Virus record (IMG/VR): IMGVR_UViG_3300044738_000035
Coordinates: 1-38,938 of that record
Source: a virus
Lineage: Duplodnaviria > Caudoviricetes
Reading direction: 5' to 3' (one strand)
Length of the DNA stretch: 38,938 nucleotides
Position 1 is the stretch's first letter. Each line of letters begins with the position of its first letter. The position numbers and the translations under genes were made by a program. Below the pieces are notes generated by a model that ran no database searches, was not told the origin of the DNA, and saw only the letters and a program-made list of their open reading frames with translations. Below are positions 15,758 through 28,781 of this stretch, in pieces.

Positions 15758-16186
15758 TTAAAGGTCGCGCTCGATTCTGACGACTCTGCCCTGCACGTCG
15801 ACCTCGTGGGCGTCGAAGTAGCGCGGCTCGTATTTCTTGTTGGCGCTCGACAGGCAGGCGCGGCCCGACTGCTCGACGTGGAAGAACTTGATGACGACCT
15901 CCGAGCCGTGGCAGCAGGCGACGACGAGGTCGCCCTGGTGGACGTCTTTCGTCAGATGCACGAGCGCGAGGTCGCCGTCGAAGATACCCTTGCCCGAGAG
16001 CGAGTTGCCGCAGACGTTCGCCAGGACGAACCTGTCCGAGGGGCGCGCCCATGATGGCAGGCGCACGTCGCGGAACTGCACGATGGGGAGGAACTCAACG
16101 CCGTGACCCGCCGCGCACTGACCGACGACCGGCAGGCGGACGTACTGAATCTCCGGACTCCTCAGCCCGTTCCCGTTCCTTATCAT
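15758..16186 (-). CDS. Stand-alone S24 (LexA/UmuD/CI C-terminal) autopeptidase
   Basis: LPVVGQCAAG (Ala-Gly site), VCGNSL (Ser), GIFDGD, VIKFF (Lys), VQGRVV. No HTH. Confidence 0.88.
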   Translation of the reverse strand: MIRNGNGLRSPEIQYVRLPVVGQCAAGHGVEFLPIVQFRDVRLPSWARPSDRFVLANVCGNSLSGKGIFDGDLALVHLTKDVHQGDLVVACCHGSEVVIKFFHVEQSGRACLSSANKKYEPRYFDAHEVDVQGRVVRIERDL

Positions 16187-16580
16187 TCTGGTTGACCTTC
16201 AGCACGGGGACGCGCGCGACCTTCCCGCCGCCGCTGCCGTAGAGGTTGAAGAGCATGTCGAGGTAGCCGAGCGCGTCCGTGCGGCGCTCCGGGGGGATGG
16301 CGCGGAAGCAGTGGAGCAGGTGCAGCTCGTCGAGGCTCAGCTCGCCCTCGGCCTCCTTCCCGCGCGCCACCGCGAAGACCTCGTCCTCGGAGACGCCTAG
16401 ACCCTTCGCGAGCGAGCGGAGCGTTGCCGTCCGCACGTCTTTGGAGACGCCGTTGACGATGTCCCCTACGGTCGCGTGGCTTATGGCGCCGCCGGTCCGG
16501 CGGGAAACCTCTCTGTAATTCAGACCCTTCTCGCTAATTATCCGCCGGACGTAGTCTCTCAGGGATTCCTGTAAAGCCAT
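16095..16580 (-). CDS. XRE/Cro-C1 HTH immunity repressor (no peptidase domain)
   Basis: LNYREVSRRTGGAISHATVGDIVNG...TLRSLAKGLGVS HTH. Divergent from the cro-like gene. Likely ATG 16580. Confidence 0.85.
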   Translation of the reverse strand: MALQESLRDYVRRIISEKGLNYREVSRRTGGAISHATVGDIVNGVSKDVRTATLRSLAKGLGVSEDEVFAVARGKEAEGELSLDELHLLHCFRAIPPERRTDALGYLDMLFNLYGSGGGKVARVPVLKVNQNDKERERAEESGDSVRPPAGRRSVRGGSRR

Positions 16581-16591
16581 CACGACGGGCA

Positions 16592-16692
16592 GTCTAGTTC
16601 TCTTTACGTCAAGAATGTCGTTTGACTTGTAAAAAAGACTTGACATATATTTCAGGAGGGGAATACACTCCGCTCCGTCAAGTTTACTTGAC
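16592..16692. promoter_or_regulatory. Immunity switch: three GTCAAG-N4-CTTGAC-like operators and rightward sigma70-type promoter
   Basis: GTCTAG-TTCT-CTTTAC 16592-16607, GTAAAA-AAGA-CTTGAC 16629-16644, GTCAAG-TTTA-CTTGAC 16677-16692. TTGACA 16640 to TACACT 16664 with an 18-nt spacer. Confidence 0.75.
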
Positions 16693-26252: not shown

Positions 26253-26485
26253 GATTCTGGCGACTGAGAGACGACCACGGCGACCCGCTCTATATTGACC
26301 CGGCGGAGATCGCCGTCGTCTACCTCTCGGGCCGTGACGAAGATGCGGGCGCGGAGGCCGGTCAGGTGCGCGTGCTCCTGAAGACCTCCGCGACCTACTT
26401 CTCCCTCGACGACGCCAGCGGGCTCCAGGTGCTCGAATACTTCGAGCGCACGAGCGCCGCGCCGGGCGAGTCGGAGTCGCCTTAA
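26249..26485 (+). CDS. Small hypothetical protein
   Basis: ATGA-coupled. LYIDPAEIAVV motif. Confidence 0.6.
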   Translation: MRFWRLRDDHGDPLYIDPAEIAVVYLSGRDEDAGAEAGQVRVLLKTSATYFSLDDASGLQVLEYFERTSAAPGESESP

Positions 26486-26700
26486 GGTCCCGTCGAGCCC
26501 TCGCCCTCTTCCTCCTCGTCGGGCGGGTCGGGCGGGTCAATGGACGGGTGCTCGACCGAGCCCTGTGTCGTCGCCCCGCCGCCGTCGCCGCCGGGCGTCT
26601 CGGTCTGACCCGGCCGCTCGTCGCCGCCGTTCGAAGGGTGCTCGACTGAGCCGGGCGGCTGGCCGTGAACTTTGTCCTTCTCGCTCGGGTGTTGTGACAT
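26482..26700 (-). CDS. 72-aa acidic low-complexity peptide with three repeated cores (putative signalling/precursor peptide)
   Basis: GAGGAG RBS. Cores GSVEHP, GQTETP, GSVEHP. Divergent from the TPR-HTH gene. Confidence 0.65.
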   Translation of the reverse strand: MSQHPSEKDKVHGQPPGSVEHPSNGGDERPGQTETPGGDGGGATTQGSVEHPSIDPPDPPDEEEEGEGSTGP

Positions 26701-26770
26701 CTCGCTTCTCCTCGCTGCTCGGCGCATCGTAGAACGGCGCGCATTTTATCAACGTCCGGGAACGCTCACA

Positions 26771-27619
26771 ATGACGAACATAACTCACACCGTCCTGACC
26801 CCGACCGACACAGCCAACGCCGAGGCGCTGAAGCTGTGGGATGAGTGCCACTTCGAGGAGGCGGCCGCGCACCTCGAAGCTTTCCTCGAAGCCGCCCACG
26901 ACCTCACGCCGGTCGAGCAGCTCCGCACGCGCAACAACCGCGCCATGTTCGCGCGCGCGCGCAGAGACTTCCGCGAGGCCCTCAGGATTCACAACGAGGC
27001 CGAGCCGTTCGCCGACGCCTGCGCCGACCCGCTGGTCCGGGGCAAGTTCCACAACGGGCGCGCCCTCACCCGACAGAACCTCGGCGACCGCGACGAGGCG
27101 ATCATCGAGTTCACGGCCGCCAGCATCTACTACCAGGAGGCGAGAGAGCACGGCCTCGTGGCCGACGTCGAGAACAACCTCGCCGTCCTTCACGCCGAGG
27201 CGGGGCGACCGGCGGAGGCGATGGAGCACCTCGCCGTCGCGCTGGGGAGCTGCCCGCCCGGCGAGGCCGGGCTCGCGCAATACGAGGACACCCGCGCGCT
27301 GATAGCCCTCGCCGCCGGCGACGCCCGCGCCGCGCTCGAATTCTCGAACTCGTCGGTCGGGCGCCTGCTCCCGCTCGGCGACAACCGCCTCATCGTCGAG
27401 AGCGTGAGGACGTCCGTGCGTGCCGGGCGCGCCTTCCTGCACGACCAGGAGGAGGCGCACGTCCGCGAGACGCTCGGCGCCTGCCGGTGGAACCTCACGC
27501 GCGCCGCCCACCGCCTCGGCTTCAACAGCCGGCAGGCGCTGGAGAATCACCTCCGGCGGAATTTCCCCGCGCTCGACGAGGAAAGGCGCAACAGAAGTGT
27601 TGCGTCGCGCGAGCCGTAA
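26771..27619 (+). CDS. TPR-repeat protein with C-terminal Fis-type HTH
   Basis: TPR helices with Asn motifs (RNNRA, FHNGRA, ENNLA). LGACRWNLTRAAHRLGFNSRQAL is a Fis-like HTH. Confidence 0.82.
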   Translation: MTNITHTVLTPTDTANAEALKLWDECHFEEAAAHLEAFLEAAHDLTPVEQLRTRNNRAMFARARRDFREALRIHNEAEPFADACADPLVRGKFHNGRALTRQNLGDRDEAIIEFTAASIYYQEAREHGLVADVENNLAVLHAEAGRPAEAMEHLAVALGSCPPGEAGLAQYEDTRALIALAAGDARAALEFSNSSVGRLLPLGDNRLIVESVRTSVRAGRAFLHDQEEAHVRETLGACRWNLTRAAHRLGFNSRQALENHLRRNFPALDEERRNRSVASREP

Positions 27620-27675
27620 ACCCTCGGTTATACTCGGGTTTGGGCGTGCGAAGCTGTCACCAAAGGAGCACGCCC

Positions 27676-27894
27676 TTGCCCGAACACCACTACAAAGAGA
27701 CGCCCGAGCGGGCGCGCCTCGCCTCCATCCTCGACTCTCTTCTTCACCAGGCGATGGAGGTCGCGCTCGCCTCCCCGGACGGGCAGGTGCAGCACCGCTT
27801 CCGGAACGTCGCCCAGGGCGTCGCCAACCAGAGGAGCCTCCTCGAACTCGATTGGGAATTCGCCGACCGCGAAGGGGCGCAGCCCGCCGATTAA
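27676..27894 (+). CDS. Small helical hypothetical protein
   Basis: AAAGGAG RBS then TTG 27676, TATACT at 27629. Sequence MPEHHYKETPERARLASILD... Confidence 0.6.
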   Translation: MPEHHYKETPERARLASILDSLLHQAMEVALASPDGQVQHRFRNVAQGVANQRSLLELDWEFADREGAQPAD

Positions 27895-27938: not shown

Positions 27939-28466
27939 ATGAACCGGGAACGCGCCCGGCGAGATTATCGAAACGGACGAGGCTTTACCCGCATGCCCCC
28001 ACCTAAGACCCCCGCCATGAGCCGCAACACTCCGGCCAGAACCCCCGCCCTGTCCGAGCAGCTCGCCGCGCGCGCCCCTCACTACAAATCTTTCGACCAC
28101 ATCACAGACCCCGTGGCGCGCCGAGCCAAAGAGATCGAGCAGCACCTGCTCTTCCTCGCCGAGGTCGCGCCCGAGATCGCGCGCGACCTCCAGCCCCTCA
28201 TCAACAACGCGCACAGGCGGGGCGACGCCGGGCGCGTCTCGGCGCGCGACCTCATCCTCGAAGCCATGACGAAGACCCTCCCGCCGGGGACGCTCGAAGA
28301 GTTCGTCGAAGACTTGGAGCTTCCCTACGGCACCGTCCGAGAGAACTTGATGAAGCTGGCGGAGGCCGGGCTCGTCGTCATAGGGATGAAGCCGCGCGAG
28401 GTCGAGCCGGCGGGCAAGCGCGGCGGCGCGCGCAAGGCCGAGGCGGTCTTCACTCTCGCTCACTGA
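27939..28466 (+). CDS. Winged-helix DNA-binding protein, candidate late regulator (start could be 27993 or 28017)
   Basis: TLEEFVEDLELPYGTVRENLMKLAEAGLV wHTH. Last gene before the late control region. Confidence 0.7.
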   Translation: MNRERARRDYRNGRGFTRMPPPKTPAMSRNTPARTPALSEQLAARAPHYKSFDHITDPVARRAKEIEQHLLFLAEVAPEIARDLQPLINNAHRRGDAGRVSARDLILEAMTKTLPPGTLEEFVEDLELPYGTVRENLMKLAEAGLVVIGMKPREVEPAGKRGGARKAEAVFTLAH

Positions 28467-28506
28467 ATTTATACATATAATACTTATCTTTAGTCTGGGT
28501 CTGACA

Positions 28507-28570
28507 GGTATATAGCCCAGCCGCTATATACCCCTCACGGATATATGGTTTGAAACATATTGTTTCAAAC
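28507..28570. promoter_or_regulatory. AT-rich control region with two perfect inverted repeats
   Basis: GGTATATAGC-N6-GCTATATACC 28507-28532 and GTTTGAAACA-TAT-TGTTTCAAAC 28548-28570. Confidence 0.65.
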
Positions 28571-28602
28571 AATAGTTTCATCCTTCATCGTTCCGCCTTC
28601 AC

Positions 28603-28644
28603 CTCATCACTTATCACTCATCACTTATCACTCATCACTCATCA
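28603..28644 (+). repeat. Six-unit heptamer tandem repeat CT(C/T)ATCA
   Basis: ctcatca cttatca ctcatca cttatca ctcatca ctcatca. Confidence 0.9.
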
Positions 28645-28649
28645 CCCTT

Positions 28650-28679
28650 CCGAAAATCAAATCCGAAGCAAGGTAACTT
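28650..28679 (+). promoter_or_regulatory. Putative late promoter CCGAAAATCAA-N13-TAACTT
   Basis: Same motif and spacing as 3683 and 31834. Heads the lysis/terminase operon. Confidence 0.65.
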
Positions 28680-28781
28680 CCCGTCAGTGAGAGCGGGCGT
28701 GCGCGCCCGTGCTGGCGGCCAATGATTCGCAGCCGCGCTTGTCGCGCCCGCTCTCCTACAAATCTTTACAGGAGAGCACCG

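Follow-up and report, generated by a model that had tools for sequence, protein, structure and literature searches.

The locus described here raises the question whether a temperate phage may hold back its late genes by means of a small peptide devoid of any export signal, and through which regulator such a peptide would act. The window (the whole analysed stretch of 38,938 nt) is a 38.9-kb virus record with a lambda-like gene order, and its sequence is contained in soil metagenome runs; no RNA data set was listed for the region. A divergent gene pair separates the last early genes from the late genes: an open reading frame (ORF) for a peptide of 72 residues (26482..26700, minus strand) and, head-to-head with 70 bp between the two ATG codons, the gene of a 282-residue protein (26771..27619, plus strand) made of tetratricopeptide repeats (TPR) and a C-terminal Fis-type helix-turn-helix (HTH). 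A first-pass annotation of the window had proposed that both form a distinct peptide-sensing module gating the late genes or the lysis-lysogeny decision. Comparison with related loci supports the reading as peptide and TPR receptor, as the pair is kept in a second phage (L001) and belongs to a recurrent gene arrangement. It is a stripped-down, leaderless member of a large receptor/propeptide family of the Pyrinomonadaceae. The gene pair, its conservation, its kinship with this family, the absence of both hydrophobic segments from the peptide, compensatory changes in a palindrome and co-variation of the recognition helix are directly established. The comparative evidence was graded as strong, with only two intact leaderless copies being available.

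Several tests indicate that the peptide ORF is a real gene. Its ATG stands 7 nt after the ribosome-binding site (RBS) GAGGAG (26708..26713, minus strand), which L001 has too. The three cores announced by the first-pass annotation are present on the minus strand: GSVEHP(S) at residue 17 (core 1, 26632..26652), GQTETP at residue 31 (core 2, 26593..26610) and GSVEHP(S) at residue 47 (core 3, 26542..26562). An exact seven-residue repeat was obtained in 4 of 20,000 residue shuffles of the peptide, and the two GSVEHPS copies differ in three of seven codons, all silently. The minus frame has zero stops and a GC content at third codon positions (GC3) of 0.83 (0.83–0.91 across both phage peptide genes), and the plus frame sharing its third positions has two stops. 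One sigma-70-type promoter was found in the direction of the peptide (0.2 expected), the sole one in 2.6 kb; it is predicted at 26743..26771 on the minus strand (TTGTGA, 17 nt, TG-extended TAAAAT), overlaps the receptor start and is identical in L001. There, the peptide gene is kept in the same place beside the receptor homologue with 61% identity, and both outer cores have changed jointly from GSVEHP to GTTEHP (GTTEHPT for core 1, GTTEHPS for core 3), ATTQ standing ahead of core 3 in either phage. L001 has the middle core in a degenerate form (QQPETP), i.e. the host-like core varies and the phage-specific outer cores are kept. The matching cores are 30–32 residues apart, and on a flexible chain the outer ones could fill both grooves of a receptor dimer. 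A further motif near the N-terminus, SQHPS, had been noted beside the cores by the first-pass annotation; it was rejected as a core, being absent from L001. A profile search with the peptide recovered only the two known copies among 58 candidates. At its end (26482-26485), the peptide ORF shares TTAA with a convergent 78-residue ORF, so that the two stop codons overlap across the strands; the peptide genes of L001 and of a third, broken copy of the module (L004) end in TTAA as well.

The peptide is rich in Gly, Pro and acidic residues and has no hydrophobic stretch at either end. In a crude hydropathy window (10 residues, Kyte-Doolittle), used here as signal test, the maximum was -0.13 in the window and -0.17 in L001. 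A signal cannot hide further upstream, because the predicted promoter leaves a leader of only ~35 nt; loss of a signal through an assembly frameshift was rejected likewise, with no room upstream in either phage. Where host propeptides have a hydrophobic helix, the phage peptide has an acidic tail, and the 3' remnant in L004 ends acidic too.

The head-to-head TPR protein with a C-terminal HTH was also borne out. Pfam returned TPR matches and HTH_8 at residues 223-254 (E 6e-4), all under the curated Pfam cut-offs. About five TPR helix pairs (residues 11-202) are followed by a long linker helix and the HTH, of which SRQALENHL (residues 253-261) is the recognition helix. Of 36 sequences, 35 retain N135 and N136. 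The AlphaFold model of the receptor reached a pLDDT of 95.6, and its structural matches are generic TPR proteins, LGN being the best quoted (Z 18.5). Rap of phi105 (Z 16.3, rmsd 4.0, 217 aligned) and PlcR (Z 16.0, rmsd 4.5, 216 aligned) were among them; Rap, PlcR and NprR stand at Z 15–16 among many unrelated TPR proteins. Of 108 PDB sequence matches, the best 60 contained no RRNPP receptor. Descent of the receptor from the RRNPPA group is neither shown nor excluded. PHROG and NCBIfam gave no family for the receptor, the peptide or the downstream ORF X and winged-helix (wHTH) proteins, and no AimR match; Rfam gave no match. Complex prediction with the receptor alignment and peptide residues 17-62 (score 0.09, mark 0.32) is evidence neither way. 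Eleven close relatives of the receptor were obtained among 7,999 candidates scored, the wider set being short forms of 270–300 residues. Its TPR core shows 34% identity over 209 residues to a host form of 497 residues, and it has the ENN motif of the host family.

The named relatives of the receptor are from Acidobacteria and Pyrinomonadaceae. Homologues were detected in 85 of 121 Pyrinomonadaceae genomes at E 1e-10 and, with a wider profile, in 244 of 401 genomes at E 1e-36; some unpublished genomes are counted in both tallies, but none of the loci used comes from them. Up to 14 receptor matches occur per host genome. The loci examined were only the best-scoring ones from several searches, including 39 of 40 regions picked by hand from the matches listed; the wider-profile search alone reported 856 matches. 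They gave 94 distinct receptor ORFs, 90 of them with 600 nt upstream. At 80 of the 90 receptors, vs 12 of 122 downstream control regions, a small ORF in divergent orientation begins with a signal peptide by a crude test. In 70 of the 90, vs none of the 122 controls, a six-residue core led by Gly stands right behind the signal; the core pattern was devised after viewing host and phage peptides and is hence partly circular, the controls being searched with the identical pattern. The host propeptides are built in the order signal, core, Pro-rich linker, often further cores (36 of 70) and hydrophobic tail, all 70 signals having a hydropathy of at least 2.0, the test on which they were selected. 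Cores within one host peptide are alike (2.64 of 5 vs 1.56 when shuffled, maximum 2.14 in 2,000). Between 19 pairs of sister receptors, identity was 0.58 in the core (all pairs 0.32), 0.34 at the signal end (0.30) and 0.28 in the linker (0.22), suggesting that cores track receptor kinship more than the flanking peptide does, adjacent genes being co-inherited anyway. The first host core starts directly after the predicted cleavage site (AFA in 23 of 70), and the junction most often seen ahead of internal host cores is TTQ (4 of 59); TTQ-G before core 3 is invariant in both phages. Of 72 intergenic stretches separating receptor and propeptide genes in the family, 53 contain AGGAGA, and both the phage pair and the host family have CTCAC ahead of the receptor start.

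Long host receptors end in the Fis HTH, in a sigma-54 AAA+ domain with HTH or in a receiver-like domain, the last by reading of the sequence. In a FastTree phylogeny of 109 TPR cores, which lacks a true root and contains many weakly supported branches, a single clade unites the long host forms, and the window group falls among the short forms; the phage pair is thus most simply explained by loss of the signal. A phage origin from the host subgroup with GQT cores is not supported by this tree. What had been called a distinct module does not stand alone, being a leaderless variant of a host-wide family whose other members have signal peptides. As side observations, TTGCAA occurs in 33 of 72 host intergenic regions (e.g. 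L096, L094, L091, L108), in many cases forming a spaced palindrome directly ahead of the RBS of the receptor, and is a likely operator of the host family; in one host genome (G001), two receptor genes (L017, L020) appear split into two frames with intact propeptide genes, for which assembly errors are possible.

The candidate operator of the phage receptor is a perfect 7-4-7 palindrome, CGCAACA-GAAG-TGTTGCG (27587..27604), located in the last codons of the receptor gene. It is CTGAACA-AAAG-TGTTCAG in L001 and CGTAACA-GAAC-TGTTACG in L004, and thus perfect in three of three DNAs though the arms differ, which amounts to compensatory changes. For comparison, any arm of at least 7 near the stop was found in 7 of 70 other receptors, and the whole window has five perfect 7-4-7 repeats; a second copy of this palindrome was absent from the window at up to three mismatches. 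The palindrome is in frame and can therefore be read from protein sequences. The corresponding tail motif was found in 14 of 19 close relatives, and 12 of these 14 have outer codons compatible with reverse complementarity (14 of 20,000 shuffles). The class of the recognition helix equals that of the operator in all 14 motif-bearing proteins (0 of 50,000 shuffles), the operator classes having been set up post hoc and, in 11 of the 14, taken from the protein and not from DNA. Helices of the type SRQAL[EQ] go with the half-site GC, SREALT with GT, SL[QH]AFK with TG and [SN]RxAFK with GA or GG. Arg goes with G and Leu with T, pairings that are expected for base contacts. Among 247 variable columns, and setting the palindrome itself aside, helix residues 258, 257 and 254 follow the operator class best; the operator classes do not cluster on the TPR tree (7 changes vs a shuffled mean of 6.7). 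Taken together, these data make it very probable that the HTH binds the palindrome.

The palindrome is followed by a predicted promoter (27629..27653, plus strand) with the -10 hexamer TATACT, 10 nt and then CGTGCGAAG. Its centre lies at ~-45 from the predicted start, so that it spans ~-54 to -37. TAnnnT stands 23–24 nt after the palindrome in the window, L001 and L004, and the spacing of TAnnnT, 10 nt and CGTGCGAAG is kept in four of four close phages, including L130, a prophage devoid of the module. Because the -10 box is present in L130, the promoter would belong to the phage backbone and the module would be an insert bringing its own operator. The first-pass annotation had placed TATACT (27629-27634) inside AAACCC-N12-GGGTTT (27618-27641). 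Both are there and TATACT is conserved in position, but the enclosing repeat is missing in L001 and L004; with 27 such 6-N12-6 repeats in the window, it was rejected as operator. The genes downstream are ORF X (72 residues, TTG start, 27676..27894, plus strand), with homologues in L001 and L130, and the gene of a wHTH protein of 157 residues (27993..28466, plus strand), the last before the late region. It is probable, though less so than the binding itself, that the contact of HTH and palindrome controls this promoter. ORF X is replaced by a different ORF in L004; no family was found for it, all Atlas matches being <0.9. A hairpin hiding its RBS folds well in the window only (z -2.2 vs -0.5 and +0.8). 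The wHTH protein is, from its position, a candidate late-gene regulator. Between this gene and the late genes, an AT-rich gap (28467-28680) holds six 7-bp direct repeats CTCATCA (28603..28645) and a 14-bp repeat, and is a candidate for the late promoter or for wHTH sites.

Integrase and repressor genes, transcribed leftward, occupy 13.9–16.7 kb of the window, from which the phage is temperate. A rightward early operon comes next (excisionase-like gene, RecT, replication initiator, adenine methylase), followed by terminase, portal, head and tail genes, in agreement with the earlier placement of the module just before the late genes. Concerning its role, gating of the late genes fits better than the primary lysogeny decision, because the integrase/repressor switch is ~10 kb off. 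Within the repressor region (15758-16646, minus strand), the repressor functions are apparently divided between an HTH gene and a separate gene with a peptidase domain (UmuD-like). A prophage-like locus with a short receptor (L085) likewise has a short UmuD-like ORF.

The best overall explanation, to which somewhat less than an even chance is given, is that the receptor activates the operon of ORF X and the wHTH gene and is restrained by the leaderless peptide inside the cell. The receptor would be made at the end of the early operon, bind the palindrome ending its own gene and turn on ORF X together with the wHTH gene, the product of which would then open the late operon. The peptide, produced from its own promoter and lacking an export signal, would occupy the TPR groove in the same cell and keep the receptor off until the receptor outnumbers it. 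The parts of this explanation differ in strength. That the peptide is the ligand of the window receptor is likely; activation by the receptor and its relief by the peptide, by analogy with AimR, can be assumed on balance; and action inside the cell is slightly favoured over action after lysis. According to a recent preprint, RRNPP peptides co-expressed intracellularly, even as fusions, regulate their receptors (bioRxiv 10.64898/2026.10.03.755986). If the explanation is true, the pair would set a threshold or delay on late-gene and lysis expression, guard a lysogen against leak and possibly block superinfecting kin using the same core. It would represent a second control point after the repressor switch, and it indicates that a peptide system is able to drop its export signal and sit ahead of late genes. 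The window and L001 are natural variants differing in core, recognition helix and operator; as receptor, operator, promoter and candidate ligands are all named, the explanation can be tested without the uncultured host.

Several observations weigh against this explanation. Both the polarity and the role of the wHTH protein are drawn from analogy and position. The -10 box occurs without the module in L130. Exchange of a block of DNA could yield the match of helix and operator, because helix and palindrome are ~50 nt apart, and an RNA copy of the palindrome also forms a hairpin (z -2.1). GSVEHP is atypical as a core: with a matrix from 129 host cores, it ranked 153 of 69,335 six-frame hexamers of the window, GQTETP being rank 1. 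Processing that yields a free N-terminal Gly is suggested by the host core following the cleavage site and by the retention of TTQ-G ahead of core 3; such a Gly would be missing from an intact cytoplasmic chain. The comparison of window and L001 peptide genes has no clear excess of silent changes (16/15/19 differences at codon positions 1/2/3; 4 of 43 same-residue codons differing). The intact leaderless copies are only two, L004 having lost most of the peptide and half of the TPR domain, and none of five related prophage wHTH loci carries the module; from the broken copy and these five loci, the module appears dispensable.

The suggested free Gly leads to the alternative that survives best, although it is considered unlikely. 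The peptide would stay uncut and inert in the cell, spill at lysis, be cut before each Gly by the host propeptide protease, be imported by neighbours and silence the receptor of incoming or resident kin, in which case lysis events and not infections would be counted. The invariant TTQ-G, which is the commonest internal host junction, and the start of host cores right behind the predicted cleavage site are in line with such processing; family-5 peptide-binding proteins scored above cut-off in five of five host genomes, but Opp/Dpp-type proteins are near-universal (11 of 14 control genomes). Acidobacteriota possess an outer membrane, the passage of which is not accounted for. The peptide promoter looks constitutive and not late, and the module sits at the late genes, whereas secreted prophage versions adjoin the repressor. 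Multi-core propeptides of Rap-Phr systems do yield several pheromones (PMC11343458). A wider scenario covers both actions of the peptide, and we hold it only tentatively, as rather doubtful: the phage, living in a soil bacterium with two membranes, would have rebuilt a secreted pheromone system into a non-exportable one. Its multi-core peptide would either be freed at host burst, neighbours then counting lysis events and switching their late genes off, or serve as an internal titration brake. The TPR-Fis family would have a readable helix/operator code, and leaderless arrays of host-type cores in some prophages would jam host receptors.

It is improbable that the module is a relic or antisense device, i.e. 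that the signal-less peptide is no longer a ligand, the receptor is constitutive and the leftward transcript dampens read-through from the early operon, in the manner of lambda paQ. The broken and missing copies, the lack of a clear silent-change excess and a promoter stretch conserved more strongly than the ORF would all suit a relic. Against it, the open frame, the RBS, the GC3 values and the cores are retained at 61% identity, the core copies differ only silently in the window and changed jointly between the phages, and the TPR asparagines are kept.

Cross-talk with the host is improbable as well. Here the peptide would mimic the ligand of host TPR receptors, or the phage receptor would hear imported host peptides with its own peptide setting the baseline. 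GQTETP nearly equals the host cores GQTDTP, GQTSTP and GQIETP, the hosts have many receptor paralogues (up to 14 matches per genome), and another prophage has a 148-residue leaderless ORF with 12 host-type cores near its TPR gene. But it is the host-like core in the middle that L001 has in degenerate form, the phage-specific cores being conserved, and the G-[ST]-x-E-H-P-type pattern, found in 44 of 301 genomes (54 matches), was in none of the 15 loci examined beside a TPR receptor, these being unrelated frames or proteins. The least probable reading is one of opposite polarity, either polarity being known for RRNPP receptors, in which the peptide activates the receptor in the fashion of PapR-PlcR or the receptor represses the X promoter: the -10 box in the module-free phage may indicate a promoter that is on by default and an insert adding repression, but a site at ~-54 to -37 next to a poor -35 region is a better fit for an activator, and the longest host forms have a sigma-54 activator domain ahead of the same HTH.

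Regarding the distribution in phages, the deletion in L004 (4949-5498) fuses the 3' end of the peptide gene to mid-receptor and leaves HTH and palindrome intact, which could give a peptide-blind receptor if the remnant is translated. Four prophage-like loci (L051:9589-10461, L052:5782-6483, L084:713-1576 and L085:3707-4399) combine short receptors, two of which are without HTH as judged by length, with ordinary secreted propeptides. Each lies no more than ~2 kb from genes of the repressor region (labels such as cro and cII are the authors' reading there and not family matches) and is thus closer to the classic arbitrium position. The N-terminus of a further receptor (P0018), MRERGAFYQ, equals the translated intergenic DNA of the window across the -10 box of the peptide promoter, which suggests that this phage, the receptor of which is 41% identical, has the same promoter. 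The 148-residue leaderless ORF mentioned above (L026:549-995, plus strand, the same as L052:4833-5279) consists of repeats of ~10 residues with 12 host-type cores by a script pattern, among them GQIESP, GNIEMG, GDMQNP, GEIPMP and GDIEFP. It is located two genes downstream of the prophage TPR gene, its opposite strand is open too, and no homologue was found among 52 candidates; it is a possible jammer or skeleton key for host receptors. Scans of viral_contigs gave no relative (the lone match was an unrelated AT-rich phage gene), INPHARED phages gave no match, contigs of two soil runs, one of which may be the source of the window, added no usable variants and an order-level search of 401 genomes gave no new close member. 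Nine weak matches (L002, L003, L005-L011) stand outside the comparison.

Peptide signalling through TPR receptors and arbitrium have been described for Gram-positive Bacillota (PMC10075063, PMC13389391), and a 2026 review assigns arbitrium-like systems to Gram-positive hosts (PMC13389391). No published description of the Pyrinomonadaceae TPR-Fis/propeptide family was present among the literature matches listed, although the RRNPP_detector tables could hold candidates. What appears to be new is a leaderless variant of the peptide and TPR-receptor kind, in a family not found in print.

With arbitrium (AimR-AimP-AimX, Bacillus SPbeta-like phages), the module has in common the temperate phage, the TPR receptor with HTH, an adjoining peptide gene with Gly-led six-residue cores and a palindromic operator ahead of a small downstream gene. 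A further common trait is that the DNA-binding domain and operator of AimR vary together, separately from the TPR part (PMC9232636). AimR has its HTH at the N-terminus, its peptide is secreted and its operator is of the 6-25-6 type (PMC9232636). Here, in contrast, the TPR part precedes a C-terminal Fis-type HTH; the peptide gene is divergent, leaderless and three-cored, while aimR-aimP-aimX are in tandem; a 7-4-7 palindrome inside the receptor gene takes the place of the 6-25-6 operator after aimP; and the candidate target is ORF X with the wHTH gene before the late operon, in a phage of Pyrinomonadaceae.

Rap-Phr (phi3T, phi105), PlcR-PapR and NprR-NprX resemble the module by their cytoplasmic TPR superhelix with Asn-lined repeats. 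The phage pair agrees with RRNPPA systems in its TPR receptor and adjacent peptide gene and departs from them in lacking an N-terminal HTH and an N-terminal secretion signal. Structural matches to Rap and PlcR were no better than those to unrelated TPR proteins such as LGN (Z 18.5). RRNPPA propeptides are described as secreted with the pheromone mostly at the C-terminus (PMC9765709, PMC10075063), whereas the cores of the present family are N-terminal in the mature peptide and the output domains are C-terminal and modular (Fis HTH, sigma-54 AAA+ plus HTH, receiver-like). Multi-core propeptides are already known among RRNPP systems, as duplicated pheromones or repeated cores in one propeptide of phage Rap-Phr (PMC11343458). 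The earlier statement that RRNPP propeptides carry signal sequences is too general in view of the leaderless LCP/SIP peptides (PMC10518010). In RopB-SIP/LCP (Streptococcus and other Firmicutes), a signal-less peptide likewise lies beside a TPR-type transcription activator; SIP has 8 residues, is translated in mature form and is still secreted (PMC10518010). The phage peptide differs as a hydrophilic chain of 72 residues with three internal cores, borne by a phage and combined with another receptor layout.

The closest likeness is to the Pyrinomonadaceae host family itself, with which the phage pair shares the homologous TPR core, the head-to-head order, the G-led cores, TTQ-G and the RBS. It departs from this family by its short receptor, the lack of a signal peptide, the acidic tail and the E-H-P cores, the palindrome in the 3' end of the receptor gene and the position before the late genes. 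Compared with the known systems, the module suggests that Acidobacteriota and their phages have a parallel TPR-peptide design, in which the receptor bears its output domain at the opposite end.

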